This document shows, piece after piece, positions 3,809-25,206 of a stretch of 41,485 bases of DNA; the first letter of the stretch is position 1, and the number at the start of each line of letters is the position of its first letter. The translations under genes were made by a program, and so were the position numbers. The notes below the pieces were generated by a model that was not told where the DNA came from, did not search any database, and saw only the letters and a list, made by a program, of their open reading frames with translations. The DNA is taken from UHGV virus genome UHGV-0203597. One strand, given 5' to 3'. The DNA is from a virus.

Positions 3809-4062
3809 GTGGTTTGTTTTCGTAATTGTTCGGCACAATAGTCGAGATGTGTTTGCAGATCCTGCATAGACATCTGTGAGCTGGTGACGTAGTTAATCAG
3901 TGCAGTCAGTTCGGCAAGTGGGCCATCGACATTAAATCCATCCTTATCGAGATCCCGGAGTAATTTCATCAAGTGCGATCCCTCCACCAGTGACCTGACG
4001 CCTCCCGGCGTGTGAATCCTTTCGGTAAATCCGTCTTCCAGTGGATAGTGATACTGCTGCAT
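3805..4062 (-). CDS. Small Ant C-terminal-domain-like protein; candidate SOS-inducible antirepressor
   Basis: 85 aa from ATG 4062 (GGAGAAG RBS); paralogous to the C-terminus of the BRO-N protein; LexA box about 20 nt upstream. Confidence 0.5.
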   Translation of the reverse strand: MQQYHYPLEDGFTERIHTPGGVRSLVEGSHLMKLLRDLDKDGFNVDGPLAELTALINYVTSSQMSMQDLQTHLDYCAEQLRKQTT

Positions 4063-4257: not shown

Positions 4258-6909
4258 ATGACGGTCTCAACCGAAGTTGACCACAACGAATACACCGGTA
4301 ACGGAGCTACGACATCATTTCCGTATACCTTCCGTATTTTCAAAAAATCCGACCTGGTTGTTCAGGTGTCTGACCTGAACGGGAACGTAACAGAATTGGT
4401 TCTGGATACTGACTACACAGTAACCAATGCTGGAGGATATAATGGCGGTAATGTAATTCTGTCGAAGGCGTTGGCTAACGGTTATCATATTTCTATATCA
4501 CGAGAGCTCCCGGTTACGCAGGATACTGATTTGCGTAATCAGGGTAAGTTCTTCGCTGAGGTACATGAAGACGCGTTCGATAAACTGACAATGCTTATTC
4601 AAAAGTGTTTTTCATGGATGAGGTTAGCACTTATAAAACCAAGCATTCTGGCTAACTATTATGATGCAAAAAATAATAAGATATCAAATCTAGCAAATGC
4701 CACTGACAGAAACGATGCTGTCAATAAAGGTTATGTTGATGATCTTTTTACTGGAGGTGTAACGCCTACACCTAACAGCGCTAAAAACGATATTTTTACA
4801 AATCACCAAAGAAAGATTGTAGCTACGATGCCGCTTCTTTTTCCTGAATATGATGCGATTATGGCTGCTAACCCGTCAGCAACTTATATGTATCCTCAAG
4901 GATTCTGCGTTAGCGAAGATTTGATATACATCACTTATCCATTTGAGCCTAAACAGACGAATAATGTCGTCGCAGTATTTAACATATCTGGTATTTATCA
5001 AGGTTATTTCTATGTTCAGGCTGGCGGCCCAGGCTTCGCTGCTGAAGGAATCGTGGTTACGTCAGACTATGGCCCCAAAAAAATGTTTGTTGGTCACACA
5101 AACGGAATACTGCGTGAATTTAATATGGAGGGGGCATTATACGGAAGCAATCTGCCTCTTGTACAAAACCATGATGTTGGATTATTCAACCAGTTCAGCT
5201 ACAGAAGAGGTATATGGCTCGTTGAGCAGAATGCGCCAGAAGTAGGACAGAAAATCACAAGAACTGTACTTGCAGTGTTCGACAGTGGTTTCAATCGCCT
5301 GTCAACTATAACGCTGCCGTTACATGATGTTGGGTATGTAACTAAAAGCACCTCACCTTATGCGCCTTATTTCAACAAGCGTCAGGGTATTGCGGTAGGT
5401 GATAACTACTTTGTCTGCGGCTATGGCGGCTTCATAGCTGATGGGGCAGGAAGCGCAGGATATAACGAATATCAGGGCAGCAAAGTTTTTAACCCTGACG
5501 GTACAAAGCGAACTGAATCAATGCTTCATCCTCAGGCCATGATGGATTTAATGAAAGCCGCAGGATTGAACGTCACTCGCATAGAAAATGAAGGCGTTTG
5601 TGTTTCTCAGGATGGAAAATCCATTTATTCACTTTACATTCATCAGGAAAGAACTGGCTCTGAACCTTACAATTCAGGTTTGGTTATTTTCGAAGATTTC
5701 TCCACTGATAAAGATGCTATCGATTTTACACCTGCATCCAGGCTTTACCGCGGATTTGATATCGATCACGCGAGCATTGGGGTATATCCCCGTAGTGCGA
5801 AGGGGATTGTTAACCCTGTAGATGGTACGTTGTTCACTAACATGACTGAAATTCTTCGCTATATGCAGGAGATGAGTCAGAAGGCATTTAATTTTTACAC
5901 AGGGACTGTCAGCATTGCTGATATATCTGGCGTGGCAATCCCTTCCAGCACATATGTTGAAATACTGAATGCGAATAATCAGACTTTTATAGTCAACTAT
6001 TATTCATCTGATAGTGGCATTAGTTATTTGGTTGCAACTAATCCTTCTGGTGACTTTGTATTTGTGCGCCAGCGACCGGCACAGTGGGCATCTAACTTAA
6101 CCATTCAGCAAAACGCAGATCCTGATACAAACCAATTAAACCGCATCACTGCATCATCATATGCCGGTGCAACTACAAACTCTCAGAAAATATTGGTCCT
6201 TGACCAGCAGGCTACAGCTAGCGCAAATAGCTTGGTATTGGGCGGTAGTTCTTCTGTGTTTAGGTCTGCCACCACGGTGGATATTGCATGCAACAGCGAC
6301 CCGACAGCATTGGGAGGAACCATACGCTGGCGGTTTTATGATACAGGTCTTCGCCCGTTTGCTGACAATACCTATAATTTTGGTCAGGCATCGTTTCGTA
6401 TTAAAGACGCCTACTTTGCAAATGCCCCAACCGTTTCATCAGATGCCACGCTGAAAACCAATCCCGAGGCAATATCAGATTTAAGTGAAATGCTTTCTTC
6501 TGATAGAGACAGCATTCTTGATGCCTGGGGCGATATTTCTGTTGTGGCGTATCGATGGCTCGACGCTATATCCATGAAGGGCGATGGTGCCAGATGGCAT
6601 TTTGGCGTCATGGCTCAGCAGGTAAGGGATGTATTCTTGGCGCACGGAATTGATGGAACCAGATTTGGCCTTCTTTGCTATGACGAGTGGGATGATATTT
6701 TTGAGCCGGTAATCGCGACTAAAGAGATTACCGATACGTCTGGTGAGTTGGTCACCGTCGAATATGACACCGGAGAACAGAGGCTGGTTAAAAAAGCGGG
6801 TAGTTCATGGGGTATACGGCCTGACCAGTGCGCTTGGCTTGAGGCTGCATATCAGCGCCGTCGATGCGATCGTATTGAAGAGCGACTCGAACTATTGGAA
6901 TCAAAATAA
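4258..6909 (+). CDS. Tailspike / tail fibre with T7 gp17-like N-terminal domain and C-terminal S74 intramolecular chaperone
   Basis: 883 aa; N-terminus resembles T7-type fibre anchor; C-terminus has RWHFGVMAQQV and GLLCYDEWDD recalled as S74 auto-processing chaperone motifs; central domain unassigned. Confidence 0.8.
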   Translation: MTVSTEVDHNEYTGNGATTSFPYTFRIFKKSDLVVQVSDLNGNVTELVLDTDYTVTNAGGYNGGNVILSKALANGYHISISRELPVTQDTDLRNQGKFFAEVHEDAFDKLTMLIQKCFSWMRLALIKPSILANYYDAKNNKISNLANATDRNDAVNKGYVDDLFTGGVTPTPNSAKNDIFTNHQRKIVATMPLLFPEYDAIMAANPSATYMYPQGFCVSEDLIYITYPFEPKQTNNVVAVFNISGIYQGYFYVQAGGPGFAAEGIVVTSDYGPKKMFVGHTNGILREFNMEGALYGSNLPLVQNHDVGLFNQFSYRRGIWLVEQNAPEVGQKITRTVLAVFDSGFNRLSTITLPLHDVGYVTKSTSPYAPYFNKRQGIAVGDNYFVCGYGGFIADGAGSAGYNEYQGSKVFNPDGTKRTESMLHPQAMMDLMKAAGLNVTRIENEGVCVSQDGKSIYSLYIHQERTGSEPYNSGLVIFEDFSTDKDAIDFTPASRLYRGFDIDHASIGVYPRSAKGIVNPVDGTLFTNMTEILRYMQEMSQKAFNFYTGTVSIADISGVAIPSSTYVEILNANNQTFIVNYYSSDSGISYLVATNPSGDFVFVRQRPAQWASNLTIQQNADPDTNQLNRITASSYAGATTNSQKILVLDQQATASANSLVLGGSSSVFRSATTVDIACNSDPTALGGTIRWRFYDTGLRPFADNTYNFGQASFRIKDAYFANAPTVSSDATLKTNPEAISDLSEMLSSDRDSILDAWGDISVVAYRWLDAISMKGDGARWHFGVMAQQVRDVFLAHGIDGTRFGLLCYDEWDDIFEPVIATKEITDTSGELVTVEYDTGEQRLVKKAGSSWGIRPDQCAWLEAAYQRRRCDRIEERLELLESK

Positions 6910-14742: not shown

Positions 14743-15327
14743 TTATTGTTTGTTTTTTTCGTTCTGGTTGATGACAAATTCAATGTAACTTTCGATCTTT
14801 GCTTTCTCGGTTTCGGGTAACAATGCGTAGCGTGAGCGGTCATAGTTGATAGTCGCAGGGTCGTGCGGGTGAATCAGTAGTTCATATCCGTGACGCCCGA
14901 ATGCGGATGCAACATTCTCCAGGGTGGAAATGGAAACGCTGACCTCATTGTTTAACAGGCGGCTGATTGTCACCTGGGCGACGCCGGATGCGCGGTGAAG
15001 TTTTCCCTGAGTTGAAAGGTCGCGGCTTTCACTCATCCAGCGTTCCAGGTTGTGAGCTGCCAGCTGACCAATGTCGCTTGGGCCGACAGGCTGAAAACCT
15101 TCCTGAGAAAGCGAGCGATCGATATCAAGCCAGTTACGGGGTTTATTGGCGGCAGCTTCAATTTTTCGCGCAACCTGGTCGCCGATAACCTTCTTGCCAA
15201 GAGCCCAGCGGTTTACCAGATTTGCCTGAGTTCCAAGTTTTTCTGCCATCCGCGTCTGAACACCATTGAATTCACGGTCGATCAAGTCGTTGAGATTTTG
15301 CCTGCGGACGTCCTGGATACTTTTCAT
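14743..15327 (-). CDS. Prophage repressor, two HTH domains, no LexA-like autocleavage domain
   Basis: 194 aa; HTH-like segments near residues 25-45 and 105-130; no Ala-Gly/Ser-Lys protease module; flanked by operator palindromes on both sides. Confidence 0.6.
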   Translation of the reverse strand: MKSIQDVRRQNLNDLIDREFNGVQTRMAEKLGTQANLVNRWALGKKVIGDQVARKIEAAANKPRNWLDIDRSLSQEGFQPVGPSDIGQLAAHNLERWMSESRDLSTQGKLHRASGVAQVTISRLLNNEVSVSISTLENVASAFGRHGYELLIHPHDPATINYDRSRYALLPETEKAKIESYIEFVINQNEKNKQ

Positions 15328-15382: not shown

Positions 15383-15397
15383 TTACCCAACAGGTAA
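15383..15397. promoter_or_regulatory. TTACC-N5-GGTAA operator-like palindrome (right operator region)
   Basis: ttacccaacaggtaa between divergent repressor and cro-like genes. Confidence 0.5.
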
Positions 15398-15430
15398 ATG
15401 CACCCCATAGGTAACTATCCTTGATTTTTG

Positions 15431-15445
15431 TTACCTTATGGGTGA
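15431..15445. promoter_or_regulatory. TTACC-N5-GGTgA operator-like site (right operator region)
   Basis: ttaccttatgggtga, one mismatch. Confidence 0.4.
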
Positions 15446-15481
15446 ATATTTATTATCTGAAATAAATATCAGGCAATAGCT

Positions 15482-16078: not shown

Positions 16079-16888
16079 ATGAGCAGACATGCAACAGATT
16101 GGGCTTGGGAGACAGATCCAGGTAGCTCATCATTAAAGCTCATACTGCTCTCGATGGCTGACAGAGCCGATGAATATAACCTCTGCTACCCCAGCATAGA
16201 ACGCCTCGTTAAAGACACTTGCCTGAATAAAAAAACCGTGCAGGCCGGGCTTATATCGCTCATGAAAATGGGGATTATTTCAGATACCGGAGAGAGAAAG
16301 GGAGCGACAAAAAGAGTGCGGGTTTTCTCTCTTAATATAACCAAAAACGGGAACATTAAAGGCAACCGGGAGGGGGGCAATGAACCCGAAAACGGGAATA
16401 TACCCGAAAACGGGAATATACCCAAAAACGGGAATATACCCAAAAACGGGATGTTGAATGATCCCAAAAACGGGATCCAGAACCAGTCATATAACCAGTC
16501 ATTTAACCAAGAGAGGGAGAGCAGGACAAAAAGCGGGGATTCTGTGCCTCATGACCCCGGAGCAAACAACGCCGTGATGAATAACTTTGTTCCTCCTGGT
16601 GGGCCAGGGCAATTAGGCAAATTTGTCATGCATGAACAATGGCAGCCATCAGATGACTTTCTTCGGAAAAGCTCATTGCAGGGGATCTACCTGGACAGTC
16701 TGCCAACGGCACAGGAACTTGCAGAGTTCAGAATTTACTGGATGGCTGAGGGTAAGGCATACCATCAGGCACAGTGGGAGCAGAAGCTGGCAAGGCGGCT
16801 GCAGATTAGCAGACAGAAGCAATCAACATTACCTGATAACAACGTTCCGCACTGGAACAGCCCTGAAGCATGGGAGGATTTCTTGTGA
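16079..16888 (+). CDS. Replication initiator (lambda O-like role) with N-terminal HTH domain and internal iterons
   Basis: 269 aa; N-terminal winged-HTH-like segment; internal ENGNIP peptide repeats from DNA iterons; translationally coupled to P-like gene. Confidence 0.6.
   Translation: MSRHATDWAWETDPGSSSLKLILLSMADRADEYNLCYPSIERLVKDTCLNKKTVQAGLISLMKMGIISDTGERKGATKRVRVFSLNITKNGNIKGNREGGNEPENGNIPENGNIPKNGNIPKNGMLNDPKNGIQNQSYNQSFNQERESRTKSGDSVPHDPGANNAVMNNFVPPGGPGQLGKFVMHEQWQPSDDFLRKSSLQGIYLDSLPTAQELAEFRIYWMAEGKAYHQAQWEQKLARRLQISRQKQSTLPDNNVPHWNSPEAWEDFL
16385..16474 (+). repeat. Iterons: five copies of CCC(G/A)AAAACGGG, four at 18-bp spacing (putative origin)
   Basis: Copies at 16385, 16403, 16421, 16439, 16463; each is an internal palindrome; followed by aaccagtcat x2. 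Confidence 0.6.
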
Positions 16889-19245: not shown

Positions 19246-19466
19246 GCGGAAAAAGAATGACTAACAGAGAGCTTGTCGATGCCGCGATTAAGCTTGCTGG
19301 TGATTTTTATTCAATGATGGGGTACACGCATCGCCCAGGCTTCAAATATTGGGAGTCTCCTCACCCGCAAGAGCAACTGGTATTTCAAATGGCCTGCCGT
19401 GCTTTTGAGGTTATTCGCGGTTCTGATGTGATGGACGCCGTTGCCGACTTGGAGGATGAAGAGTGA
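19242..19466 (+). CDS. Hypothetical protein
   Basis: 74 aa; translationally coupled to neighbours. Confidence 0.4.
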   Translation: MSGKRMTNRELVDAAIKLAGDFYSMMGYTHRPGFKYWESPHPQEQLVFQMACRAFEVIRGSDVMDAVADLEDEE

Positions 19467-19822
19467 GCGAGATTAATTATCAGGAAGGGCATGAAAAGGC
19501 AGGGCAGGCAAAACCAGTGGCATGGCGATATCGCTACGTGAAAAAAGGCGTTACAGACTTTCAGGGGAAGCAGTGGGTTGGTGACTGGAAATATGTACCG
19601 ACAAAAGAGGATTGCAACGACAGACCGAACTATGAAATTCAGGCGTTATTCACTGCCCCGCCTGTGCCACTGACACCAGAAGGATTGATTAAAGCAGTGC
19701 GTTTCTATGAACAGGTAAAGCGTGAGAATCCGCCAGTCGAAACCGGAGCATGGAAAGACGCTGTTGACTGGGTGCTCAAAGAGGCTTGCCAGTCTGTAAA
19801 CATTGGCATCAAAGGAGAGTGA
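19463..19822 (+). CDS. Hypothetical protein
   Basis: 119 aa; coupled. Confidence 0.4.
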   Translation: MSEINYQEGHEKAGQAKPVAWRYRYVKKGVTDFQGKQWVGDWKYVPTKEDCNDRPNYEIQALFTAPPVPLTPEGLIKAVRFYEQVKRENPPVETGAWKDAVDWVLKEACQSVNIGIKGE

Positions 19823-19825
19823 GAA

Positions 19826-20316
19826 TGCAAATTTCACCGGTTACTCTTCGTGTTGCGAAGGCGTTTATATCCAGACATCACCGACACAATAACCCCCCGG
19901 TGGGGCATAAATTCAGCATTGGTCTGAGAAATGATGCCGGAGAATTGATAGGTGTGGCGACAGCCGGTCGACCTGTTGCACGACATTTGGATGATGGATT
20001 AACGCTTGAAGTAAATCGCACATGTACCACAGGAGAACGCAACGCTAACAGCGCGCTTTATGGTGCTGTCTGGCGGGCAGCAAAAGCTATGGGTTATCAA
20101 CGTTGTATTACGTACACCCGGGCAGATGAATCAGGAGCATCTCTTCGCGCAGCTGGTTTTGTTCGTGTGAAAGAGCTTCCTCCAAGAAAAAGCTGGGCGG
20201 AATCAAGCGTCGCCCTGCGGAGTAAACGCGATCCAGTCGGAAACGGTGGTGTTCCTCGTGTGCTCTGGGAAATCAGGATAATGAGTACCACTGGTATTCG
20301 CATCAAAGGAGAGTGA
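19826..20316 (+). CDS. Hypothetical protein, possibly acetyltransferase-like fold
   Basis: 163 aa from MQISPV; AAAGGAG RBS; pattern LIGVATAGRP...TYTRADESGASLRAAGF reminiscent of an acyl-CoA N-acyltransferase core (uncertain). Confidence 0.4.
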
Positions 20317-20317
20317 T

Positions 20318-20581
20318 ATGGCAACTTTGACAAAAAAAGAACGGGCATGGTTGAACGAATTACAGGACGTTCTTGATCGCTGCCCATCACCGAAAAAAAT
20401 TGGTTTTTACACCATTGGCGATAAAAGCATTTACCTGTATGACCTGCGCCGCATGGATGAAATCATGGAGGCTCTTGATAATCGTTCGTCGATGGATTGG
20501 TGTGTTGCTGTCCATGATATGAATGCCGGATTTGATGAAAGGATTTTGTTCCCCTCATCAGTTGAAAGCACTGCGGGTTAA
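20318..20581 (+). CDS. Hypothetical protein
   Basis: 87 aa. Confidence 0.4.
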   Translation: MATLTKKERAWLNELQDVLDRCPSPKKIGFYTIGDKSIYLYDLRRMDEIMEALDNRSSMDWCVAVHDMNAGFDERILFPSSVESTAG

Positions 20582-20591
20582 GGAGTAACAC

Positions 20592-21374
20592 ATGACCACT
20601 ATTACCAAAGAACGTATTGAATTGTTCATTAAAAATCCGCTTGAAAACGGGCTTACCCGTGGTGAACAAATGGAACTGGCACGGATTGCGCTGGCATCAC
20701 TGGAAGCAGAACCAGTTGCTTATATTTTCAAACATCCGGCCGGGAAATTATTCTGGGCTTTAACGGATGAAAGCAATAAAGAGCAACCGGACGTTATTCC
20801 TGTTTATGCTGACTCACCTGCGCCGGTTGTGCCGGATGAAATAGACGTAAACGATGTACCAAGGGCGGTGACATATTTCAAGACACACAGAGATTGTTAC
20901 GCAGATGGCTGGAACGCCTGCCGCGCCGCCATGCTTCAGTCCGGAAACTTTCGGGAAAATAAGAATTCGTCAACCAATAATTTTCGGGAAATCGCGGAAA
21001 CGTCAACCAACTATCCGGTAATTCCGGATGGTTTATCCACGGTATGCGCTGAGGCTTATCAGGTTGTAGGAGTTATGGCAGATGCGCTTGGTGTATTCGG
21101 TGATGCAGCAGTACAGAAAGTTCTGGATAACCTGTCACAGCAAAAACTTGTTCACAGAGATGTGCTGCCGTTCTCGCTTCCGGTAACTCCGGATGGTTGG
21201 ATAAGCTGTAGTGATCGAATGCCGAACGACGCGCAGTGGTGCGTAGTGAACACAGAATACGGGTATTACGTGCAATGCTGGTCTGAAGGTCAAGGGTGGC
21301 TTGGTGATGATATCAGCATCCCTAAATGCGATGTAATCAATTGGATGCCTCTACCAGAACCGCCGCAGGGGTGA
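20592..21374 (+). CDS. DUF551-like C-terminal domain protein
   Basis: 260 aa; C-terminal WISCSDRMP...WCVVNTEYGYYVQCW...WMPLPEPP; internal direct repeat 20949-21010. Confidence 0.5.
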   Translation: MTTITKERIELFIKNPLENGLTRGEQMELARIALASLEAEPVAYIFKHPAGKLFWALTDESNKEQPDVIPVYADSPAPVVPDEIDVNDVPRAVTYFKTHRDCYADGWNACRAAMLQSGNFRENKNSSTNNFREIAETSTNYPVIPDGLSTVCAEAYQVVGVMADALGVFGDAAVQKVLDNLSQQKLVHRDVLPFSLPVTPDGWISCSDRMPNDAQWCVVNTEYGYYVQCWSEGQGWLGDDISIPKCDVINWMPLPEPPQG

Positions 21375-21440
21375 AATGATGCTTGGCCTGAAGTATTTTA
21401 TGTAATTGGTATTGCTATATTTTTATCTGGGGATAAACGA

Positions 21441-21683
21441 ATGTTCTCTCTGATTCAACGTGGTCAGATATACACCGATAGCGCTGGCTATCCAGTAAAA
21501 ATCATTCGTAGTACTGATCACTCAGTATTCTTCAAGAGGATGGATGGCTATCCTGGAAGAGTGTGCATCAGAAAATTCAATAATTTATTCGAACACATTG
21601 ATCACAGAGAATATCACCAGATCCTGGCTGAAACAGAACAGGAGAACCATCTGAAAAAATTACGTGCTATGCAAAGGAGATAA
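21441..21683 (+). CDS. Hypothetical protein
   Basis: 80 aa. Confidence 0.4.
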   Translation: MFSLIQRGQIYTDSAGYPVKIIRSTDHSVFFKRMDGYPGRVCIRKFNNLFEHIDHREYHQILAETEQENHLKKLRAMQRR

Positions 21684-21718
21684 ACCGGTAAATGTGTTCG
21701 CGATAAAGGTAAATATTG

Positions 21719-22074: not shown

Positions 22075-22287
22075 ATGCCAAAAATACGCTACGACCTTGA
22101 AGATATGAGAGATAACTCAGCAAATTTTCCGAAAGAGGTTAAATTTCTCATGAATAAGTATGGTTGCGCCAGGAGGGATATAGTTATCGACAGTCAGCAC
22201 CCTTGCGGCGAGGATGTAATTTTCATTCGCGGTAAATGGGAATGGTATCTTGACGAGAGTTTTTACGATGAATTTGATGGACTTTGA
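22075..22287 (+). CDS. Hypothetical protein
   Basis: 70 aa from MPKIRYDL (alternative GTG 22054); GAAGGTG RBS. Confidence 0.35.
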   Translation: MPKIRYDLEDMRDNSANFPKEVKFLMNKYGCARRDIVIDSQHPCGEDVIFIRGKWEWYLDESFYDEFDGL

Positions 22288-22292
22288 ATACT

Positions 22293-22319
22293 GCCGCCAA
22301 CTATGGCGGCTTTATTTTG
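22293..22319 (+). terminator. Terminator preceding the terminase operon
   Basis: gccgcc-aactat-ggcggc followed by tttattttg. Confidence 0.6.
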
Positions 22320-22329
22320 CATGGTACTA

Positions 22330-22344
22330 TTACCACAACGGTAA
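22330..22344. promoter_or_regulatory. TTACC-N5-GGTAA operator-like palindrome upstream of terminase
   Basis: ttaccacaacggtaa 18 nt before terS ATG; second imperfect copy at 22348-22362. Confidence 0.45.
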
Positions 22345-22361
22345 CTATTACCACGGTGGTT

Positions 22362-22994
22362 ATGATGCCTGCTGAACCTAAAACCTATAAACGTAAATCA
22401 ACGCAATTTAAGCCACTAACAGCAATGCAGGAGGCTTATTGCCAGTCATACATCAAAACGCCTGAAAACCAGACTCAGGCAGCGATTAACGCAGGATTCT
22501 CCCCAAATACAGCGGCAGTTAAAGCAAGTGTCATGATGCGCGATGAACGCATTCAAAAACGGATTGCCGAGTTGATGGAGGAGCGCAACAAACGAATGCG
22601 CGTCAGTGCTGATTACGTTCTCATGCGCCTGGTGGAGATCGACCAGATGGACGTGCTGGATATACTGAACGATGACGGCGGGATGAAGCCGATCGCTGAA
22701 TGGCCGAAGGTCTGGCGTACCTCTCTCAGTGCTATGGATATCGCTACCATCAAGACAACCCAGGCTTCCCTGCAAAAAGAGAATGGCGAGGCGGATCTCT
22801 CTGTTGAGGATGTCGAGCATATCCTGAAGAAGGTGAAATGGCCTGACAAGGTGAAGAACCTTGAGCTGATTGGTAAGCATGTTGATGTCAACGCATTCAA
22901 AGAACGTCTGGATGTTAATGTGAATGTGACAATTGCTGATCGCATAGCAGCAGCCAGGAAGCGACTCAAAGAACGTCAGGATGGTAATCAGTGA
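22362..22994 (+). CDS. Terminase small subunit
   Basis: 210 aa from MMPAEP; position before large terminase with 4-nt overlap; N-terminal DNA-binding-like region. Confidence 0.6.
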   Translation: MMPAEPKTYKRKSTQFKPLTAMQEAYCQSYIKTPENQTQAAINAGFSPNTAAVKASVMMRDERIQKRIAELMEERNKRMRVSADYVLMRLVEIDQMDVLDILNDDGGMKPIAEWPKVWRTSLSAMDIATIKTTQASLQKENGEADLSVEDVEHILKKVKWPDKVKNLELIGKHVDVNAFKERLDVNVNVTIADRIAAARKRLKERQDGNQ

Positions 22995-25129: not shown

Positions 25130-25206
25130 TGGCGTGGCATGCAGGATTCGAACCTGCGACCAACCGCTTAGAAGGCGGTTGCTCTGTCCAACTGAGCTAA
25201 TGCCAC
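25130..25206 (-). tRNA. tRNA-Arg (anticodon UCU), phage-encoded variant
   Basis: 77 nt GTGGCATTAGCTCAGTTGGACAGAGCAACCGCCTTCTAAGCGGTTGGTCGCAGGTTCGAATCCTGCATGCCACGCCA; full cloverleaf with 7-bp acceptor stem, GTTCGAATC T-loop, encoded CCA; D and T arms match recalled E. coli argU, acceptor and anticodon stems differ. Confidence 0.85.

Follow-up and report, generated by a model that had tools for sequence, protein, structure and literature searches.

The virus genome UHGV-0203597 (41,485 nucleotides, nt; this whole stretch of DNA is referred to here as the window) carries at positions 20592-21374 of the + strand a gene with a DUF551 domain at its end, and inside the reading frame of this gene there is a short tandem repeat. 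The question raised by this locus is what a repeat of this kind represents within a coding sequence; an original prediction proposed that it could be a protein-binding or packaging-related site embedded in the gene, or just a recent slippage duplication. From the analysis presented here we conclude that the repeat is genuine, ancient and very widespread, and that it is ordinary in kind. The reading that we favour, with moderate confidence, is that of an old, conserved two-unit spacer or junction cassette that joins swappable modules in the mosaic early proteins of enterobacterial prophages (Eaa, Ea22-variant and DUF551 proteins).

The repeat was read in the window at 20946-21011, where GGA precedes the first unit, TAT follows the second, and both units are in frame. 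Its components are the following:

20946-20978, + strand: repeat unit 1, 11 codons AAC TTT CGG GAA AAT AAG AAT TCG TCA ACC AAT, encoding NFRENKNSSTN
20979-21011, + strand: repeat unit 2, 11 codons AAT TTT CGG GAA ATC GCG GAA ACG TCA ACC AAC, encoding NFREIAETSTN
20949-20958 (unit 1) and 20982-20991 (unit 2), + strand: 5' arm, TTTCGGGAAA, exact in both units, a quasi-palindrome (8/10)
20968-20977 (unit 1) and 21001-21010 (unit 2), + strand: 3' arm, CGTCAACCAA, exact in both units

The start-to-start offset is 33 nt, and thus the true unit has 33 nt (11 codons). The coordinates of the original prediction were right, as was the NFRE...STN peptide repeat that it had read inside the DUF551-like gene; the 29 bp that it gave hold as the length of the matched block, not as the period. 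The peptide repeat corresponds to residues 119-140 of the 260-residue open reading frame (ORF) 20592-21374. In register, the units are identical at 24 of 32 nt (75%), and seven of the eight differing positions lie within the central 12 nt, that is, in the four central codons, the remaining one being in the terminal codon. The pattern TTTCGGGAAA-N10-GTCAACCAA has exactly two matches in the window, at 20949-20977 and 20982-21010, against 0.01 expected by chance (100 shuffles), and no third match was found in the whole window with up to 3 mismatches allowed. A self-match of at least 24/32 at offsets of 12-60 is expected 0.01 times per window (100 Markov-1 simulations), and the same 32-nt scan of the window recovered only this repeat and an 18-bp array at 16384-16451. 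Tandem Repeats Finder, at a score of 30, did not list the repeat because the unit centres have diverged; a separate repeat search and the custom scan both detected it.

The repeat is part of a larger block of conserved sequence. This cassette is common to many genes with unrelated flanks, and its edges mark the points where homology between relatives begins and ends. Two features are required to describe it:

20892-21035, + strand: junction cassette, ...DGWNACRAAMLQSG - unit 1 - unit 2 - YPVIPDG..., an island of ~110-140 nt common to genes with unrelated flanks
21014-21033 (PVIPDG) and 21179-21198 (PVTPDGW), + strand: 20-nt direct repeat TCCGGTAAyTCCGGATGGTT, 95% identical, bracketing a 165-nt middle module

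The limits of the cassette were obtained with blastn, by comparing positions 20300-21700 of the window with 120 viral contigs, all of them chosen for carrying the unit. Among the 122 high-scoring segment pairs that span the repeat, 103 start at 20892-20927, 11 at 20940-20981 and 8 at 20298-20675, while 104 end at 21018-21035, 15 at 21006-21011 and 3 at 20976-20981. Coverage of the 120 unit-selected loci is 117-121 inside the island versus 0-10 outside it, and falls to 0 by position 21050. In Symbiopectobacterium, the cassette is the only segment with detectable similarity. Three more short islands are shared, at 20664-20723 (LARIALASLEAEP), 21168-21240 (PVTPDGWISCSxRMP) and 21324-21400 (WMPLPEPP and the stop codon), and the intervening sequences are unrelated.

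The protein alignment shows the same organization, with alternative modules plugged in between fixed short motifs. After the linker, the protein continues as PVIPSEVLSAIL, as PVIPDGLSTVCAEAY (the form present in this window), as PVTPDGWISCSE, which leads directly into DUF551, or as PVTPALLPGGF, PVIPDGYALVP, CWCHTCRPV (Lar-like) or CPKCGGRG. Together with several upstream types there are at least seven downstream module types, and the cassette sits at the module or domain boundary. Pfam searches with 92 cluster representatives gave DUF551 in 45, Lar_restr_allev in 3 and Ead_Ea22 in 1, and no domain in the rest. One upstream module is found joined to different downstream modules and vice versa; the four-gamete test on the fine classes yielded 1 quartet. 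In many relatives, the linker goes straight to PVTPDGWISCSE, without the 165-nt module, as if an exchange had occurred between the two 20-nt copies. A third, weaker copy of the PVxPD sequence is present at 20823-20838 (PVVPDE), and this motif opens each module of the protein.

This anatomy fits a model already established for phages, in which mosaicism arises by homologous exchange at short conserved boundary sequences (PMC3233612), and it also agrees with the finding that Rad52-like phage recombinases can promote exchange between homologies that are short and diverged (PMC3945230). Exchange has been reported to involve small gene fragments more often than whole modules (PMC3945230), and mosaicism has been described for the ea22 genes of Stx phages, where DUF551 is a portable domain (PMC10834534). 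On this basis we propose that, in the protein, the 22-residue spacer formed by two copies of NFRExxxSSTN would be a flexible interdomain linker, and that, at the DNA level, the cassette and the PV(I/T)PDGW block would act as in-frame homology patches. Phage single-strand-annealing recombinases, or host recombination, could swap, insert or delete modules at these patches with the frame kept, and the internal 10-nt arms might at times mispair to give variants with one or three units.

The distribution of the cassette shows that it is old. The same diverged pair, in the same order, is present in 99 of the 120 best protein homologues; of the other 21, two have a single unit detectable by the regular expression, because of a point change in an arm, and 19 lack the whole segment, AAMLQ being followed there by a different module. 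With the 30-residue linker as the query, a library-wide phmmer search gave 93 clusters at 50% identity, and 88 of the 92 that were examined have exactly two units; a homology query of 45 residues returned only 2 fragments and was uninformative. Among 5426 complete E. coli genomes, 1117 carry the 108-nt cassette, at 2337 places, 108 of them on plasmids, with a median of 2 and a maximum of 7 places per positive genome. Phages of Escherichia, Shigella and Salmonella contribute 139 records with the cassette, with Stx1 and Stx2 phages, P7, POCJ13 and SEN22 among them; in another genus, it is found at two loci of Symbiopectobacterium. A scan of one genome per species for the exact pattern returned 9 loci, of which the two from Symbiopectobacterium are real; the seven single matches in unrelated metagenome-assembled genomes were discarded as chance level (~4 expected, from 19 specified bases in 596 Gb).

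The two units of the cassette are inherited together as one haplotype. Their centres show separate series of alleles (NKN, NKD, NKG, NSI, NAN, NEN, ISN and others in unit 1; IA, IS, IP, TS, NA and others in unit 2), and the two series form tightly linked haplotypes, with only 1 four-gamete quartet. The original prediction had suggested looking for the repeat in relatives, and both units are kept in the three closest genomes (99.9-100% identity), none of which carries an otherwise identical gene with a single unit. Forms with one or three units are rare and confined to contexts other than the close relatives; they show that slippage or unequal exchange does occur within the family. Single-unit forms with junctions inside the arms were found at L032, L045 and L072. 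The viral contig L025 carries at ~6050-6150 three units, with unit 2 duplicated exactly over its 33 nt; the upstream frame is broken there by the loss of 1 nt from the first arm, and this copy looks like a decaying or restarted gene.

Regarding the peptide, the 22 residues have a grand average of hydropathy of -1.68, and 82% of them are polar, charged, Gly or Pro. AlphaFold2 was run twice, with a 121-sequence mosaic alignment and with a 27-sequence alignment of the same architecture. Both runs predicted coil at residues 117-146/149, with a predicted local distance difference test score (pLDDT) of 25-38, between a helix that ends at AAMLQ (residue 116) and helices that resume at residue 147/150. 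The composition and the lack of regular predicted structure are those of a linker, on models of low confidence. The free drift of sequence that is expected of a linker was not observed: drift is confined to the centres, with the arms showing no variation at any of the three codon positions.

The conservation of the arms was measured as the fraction of amino-acid-identical codon pairs that differ by a synonymous change. For 13 sequences, 11 of them protein-ascertained, this fraction was 2.4% in the arms, 36% in the centres, 22% in the unit edges and 39% in the flanks; for 49 distinct cassettes collected with a degenerate scan that is blind to synonymous sites, it was 1.9%, 17%, 13% and 18%, respectively. 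In the 240 units of the degenerate scan, phenylalanine is always TTT, glutamate always GAA and serine always TCA, while threonine is ACC in 239 and arginine CGG in 234; codon 8, which is unconstrained by the search pattern, has G at its third position in 239 of the 240. The conservation within the cassette lacks codon periodicity, and tblastn and blastn retrieved the same set of phage records (138 versus 139). In the Stx2a allele, the identity is 92% at the nucleotide level versus 77% at the amino acid level, so that essentially all changes are nonsynonymous. In Symbiopectobacterium, the sequence AAMLQSGN that precedes the units has 5 synonymous changes in 8 codons, and the arms are identical. 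The centres use AAT and AAC at ~50:50 and hence look old and unconstrained rather than positively selected. The block at the start of DUF551, CCG GTA ACT CCG GAT GGT TGG ATA AGC TGT AGT GAG CGA ATG, is equally invariant; synonymous variation is normal in the LARIALASLEAEP and WMPLPEPP islands. For the internal junction blocks, conservation thus extends beyond the protein to the DNA.

Several of these results weigh against the junction cassette as we have described it. Both AlphaFold2 models are of low confidence overall (mean pLDDT 43-47), and for this reason they argue only weakly for a disordered spacer. A pure linker role leaves unexplained the invariance of the arms at four-fold degenerate sites while adjacent codons vary, and a pure role as recombination anchor also fails, given that recombination alone does not lower diversity; the invariance of the arms beside hypervariable centres is a real anomaly. 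The tight linkage of the two centres implies that the inner arms are not frequent crossover points, and with 1 quartet for the fine upstream and downstream classes, the evidence of repeated exchange at the cassette is qualitative. In addition, every module of the protein is without known function.

It is in this anomaly that the first alternative finds its support. According to it, the arms TTTCGGGAAA and CGTCAACCAA, each present twice and 33 bp (~3 helical turns) apart, are a cis-acting nucleic-acid element, and the peptide is secondary; we consider this unlikely, although it accounts directly for the synonymous difference of 1.9-2.4% in the arms versus 17-39% in centres and flanks, for the near-fixed arm codons, for the missing codon periodicity, for the nonsynonymous changes of the Stx2a allele and for the identical arms of Symbiopectobacterium. 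Conservation independent of the frame, as expected of a DNA site, was indeed found, with 1.9-2.7% in the arms versus 17-40% in the adjacent codons. In such a case the four arms would be an element that has spread in frame through early prophage genes and is kept by selection on DNA or RNA, the centres and the linker being by-products, a view to which we give little credence; the element might be recognized, or used for annealing, by a recombination function that swaps domains in frame, or it might be bound by a regulatory protein or RNA. The quasi-palindromic TTTCGGGAAA also has a weak excess of near-matches in the window: 11 decamers differ from it by at most one mismatch, versus 2.9 expected, and none of 100 shuffles reached 11. 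Such decamers are located, for example, at 4020, 7273, 14811, 15328, 22125, 29094, 38410 and 39945, and one of them lies directly upstream of the start of a repressor-like gene.

Against a cis-acting element stand the position of the cassette, which is always in frame inside ORFs and never intergenic, and the DUF551-start block, whose equal invariance as DNA points to a general property of junction blocks and not to a specific site. Moreover, no candidate binder was found. The idea of a site embedded in the coding sequence, put forward by the original prediction, is a candidate reading that gained unexpected weight from the synonymous constraint on the arms; neither a binding protein nor an RNA structure nor an overlapping ORF was identified. 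RNA folding of both strands compared with shuffled sequences gave no signal (z = -0.20 for the + strand and +0.69 for the - strand), and the sole Rfam match was below threshold, attributable to chance and outside the repeat. The only promoter-like sequence, TTGACG-18-AATTAT at 21006-20977, is antisense and weak (9/12); the density of such matches is below chance, and its -10 element falls in the less conserved unit edge, and so it was rejected. To our knowledge, from a comparison by eye, the arms have no convincing match to the consensus sequences of IHF, the lambda Int arm-type sites, the shufflon sfx, the attC core, sigma-E or CodY.

A role of the arms as CI/Cro operator was also rejected, given that the operators of this phage are inverted repeats of a different motif, ACCCnAnAGGTAA, and none of the 11 near-matching decamers forms part of them. 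Inverted and direct copies of ACCCnAnAGGTAA and TTACCTnnnGGGT are located at 15385-15447, between the repressor-like gene (14743-15327, - strand) and the next gene on the + strand, and are probably the immunity operators.

In the +1 frame, an ORF of 38 codons at 20905-21021 overlaps the cassette nearly exactly; it would encode basic FGK(I/S)R(I/K)RQP units, and its TAA lies inside CCGGTAATTCC. Dual coding, or +1 frameshifting at UUU-CGG, was discarded, since the ATG at 20905 is not conserved and variant codons create stops in the +1 and +2 frames. Over 126 nt, the alternative frames are open in 0-36 of 58 contexts, and none is open beyond the units. Adenine mutagenesis of the AAY-rich centre, in the style of diversity-generating retroelements, was likewise rejected: the AAY codons on either side are conserved, and the repeats lie next to each other and are much too short.

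The second alternative places the selection on the peptide. The two units would be copies of a short linear motif bound by a host or phage partner, with FRE and SSTN as the scaffold and the centres setting the specificity. The near-invariance of F-R-E and S-S-T-N in the 92 cluster representatives, with positions 5-7 varying widely, the strong preference for two copies (88/92) and the dominance of nonsynonymous changes in the centres are what such a motif would produce. Nevertheless, we find it quite doubtful, since it leaves the synonymous-site invariance of the arms unexplained, and the ordinary synonymous polymorphism of the centres also speaks against it. When the arms do carry replacements, these are radical (F to C, E to K/G/I), and neither a known motif nor a solved homologue was matched.

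A recent replication-slippage duplication without significance, the other proposal of the original prediction, is extremely improbable. The tandem, in-frame arrangement with exact 10-nt arms agrees with it, as do the true recent event in L025 and the existence of single-unit forms. In contrast, the near-identity expected of recent copies is missing here, with 8 of 32 positions different and 7 of them in the central 12 nt, and hundreds of relatives, some of them in another genus, keep the diverged pair with its order unchanged, each unit with its own allele series.

That the repeat is a site of recognition or cleavage by the terminase (pac or cos) is hardly credible: the gene does lie ~1.3 kb upstream of the small terminase gene in this window, but the cassette is present in phages with unrelated packaging systems and terminases, at positions unrelated to the terminase genes, and at up to 7 places in a single E. 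coli genome. The known pac sites of headful phages (P22, SPP1, P1) are located within or beside the small-terminase or pacA gene. In the window, 1.27 kb and three ORFs separate the repeat from the small terminase gene downstream of it. No such linkage holds across related phages: in P7, the cassette belongs to a C1-controlled accessory operon (upf89.5); in Stx phages, it lies in the exo-xis region beside the antirepressor, xis and int, 3-7 kb from the end of the record; and in the P22-like SEN22 and in PhiR5_1, it is just upstream of int.

Returning to the junction cassette, the closest known counterparts are the conserved boundary or linker sequences of the lambdoid modular-exchange model (Susskind & Botstein; Clark et al. 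2001), as cited in PMC3233612 and PMC3945230. As in those cases, a short stretch of DNA is conserved between unrelated neighbours at module boundaries, homology begins and ends there, and the phages are temperate enterobacterial phages that encode Rad52-like recombinases. The cassette differs in that it is intragenic and translated as a spacer, whereas the classical cases are intergenic or at gene ends, and in its two-unit repeat with invariant arms and hypervariable centres, in which the inner arms give no sign of frequent crossover. With Ea22/Eaa of lambda and Stx phages the gene shares its neighbourhood, following an ead/Ea22-like gene, and some genes with the cassette are annotated as Ea22 or EaA. 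For these proteins, PMC10834534 describes domain blocks, one shared 16-residue segment and DUF551 as a portable C-terminal domain; the NFRE...STN two-unit cassette and its conservation at the nucleotide level are not described there, and in our search of the literature no description of this cassette was found. The Ea22 protein of lambda lacks DUF551.

The flexible interdomain linkers of bacterial multidomain proteins, for instance the Q-linkers, typically drift freely in sequence and length. The spacer resembles them in its ~20 residues, rich in N, S, T, E and R, in its location between independent modules and in the lack of predicted regular structure; in contrast with Q-linkers, its two sub-motifs are fixed to the nucleotide and their copy number is almost always two. 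In the R64 shufflon and in the Gin and Cin tail-fibre segments, short intragenic repeats join alternative C-terminal modules in frame. The cassette shares with these systems short repeated sites inside a coding region and alternative modules in frame, but its repeats are direct and not inverted, no dedicated recombinase gene lies beside the locus, no alternative silent cassettes are found within it, and its sequence, compared by eye only, shows no similarity to sfx, gix or cix.

For this particular gene the consequences are minor, in that a candidate packaging or regulatory site is removed and the repeat is inherited rather than recent. In a broader context, the cassette offers a common example, found in about one fifth of complete E. 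coli genomes and often in several copies, of an intragenic junction by which prophage accessory proteins are assembled from interchangeable domains, and some of the partner domains (Lar-like and MazZ/DUF550-like) are linked to anti-restriction. The invariant arms beside hypervariable centres could bear on whether phage mosaicism is targeted by sequence or only filtered by selection. Regarding the partner domains, the linker is fused to Lar-type restriction-alleviation zinc-ribbon domains in 3 of the 92 representatives (P0163, P0181 and others; locus L072 and others), and related proteins carry DUF550/MazZ-like dATP/dGTP pyrophosphohydrolase domains. This hints at a mosaic family that may serve as a reservoir of modules for anti-restriction or counter-defence (PMC10834534).

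The gene that carries the cassette and its recognized domain are as follows:

20592-21374, + strand: gene for a 260-residue mosaic prophage early protein, annotated 'DUF551 domain-containing protein', with relatives named Eaa, EaA or Ea22
21195-21368, + strand: DUF551 domain (PF04448), residues 202-259, first codons PVTPDGWISCSERM

The protein belongs to the DUF551 family, with a Pfam match of 42.3 bits versus a cut-off of 22 that covers the profile in full (positions 1-68 of 68). An annotated coding sequence with 100% identity to the gene is found in E. coli Nord58 and B19695, in a prophage integrated beside guaA, and the protein matches piecewise 15 PHROG families, all of unknown function; a sequence search of the PDB gave no solved homologue, and PADLOC gave no matches. 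The gene belongs to the early region, with the replication genes on one side and the small terminase gene (Terminase_2, 22284-22994) on the other; it is preceded by an ORF of 87 residues and followed by DUF4222, a putative regulator and an ORF of 77 residues. The annotation of the B19695 prophage, which bears the identical gene, includes RecT and a YqaJ-type exonuclease; the upstream region of the window is not colinear with that record. A Mom-like DNA-modification protein is encoded at 19786-20316 (PHROG 1384, E = 3e-42; the Pfam Mom match is below the cut-off, 21.3 versus 27.1 bits), and its gene overlaps the end of the ORF 19463-19822. In B19695, an ead/Ea22-like gene replaces the Mom-like gene, and therefore the neighbourhood is itself mosaic.

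Other features were noted elsewhere in the window. The 18-bp array at 16384-16451 is formed by 3.8 copies of ACCCAAAAACGGGAATAT (98% matches) and is followed by 2.4 copies of a 12-bp unit at 16481-16509. Both arrays are located inside a replication-initiator-like ORF (16079-16888), whose counterpart in a related genome is annotated 'DnaT-like ssDNA-binding domain', and they look like origin iterons. A terminator-like, G+C-rich hairpin, formed by GCCGCCAACTATGGCGGC followed by TTTATTTT, lies at 22291-22310, inside the annotated small-terminase ORF (TTG start at 22284) and within its first 30 nt. Finally, a tRNA-Arg gene (anticodon TCT) is located at 25130-25206 on the - strand, between the large terminase and portal genes, and is annotated in the related genome too.

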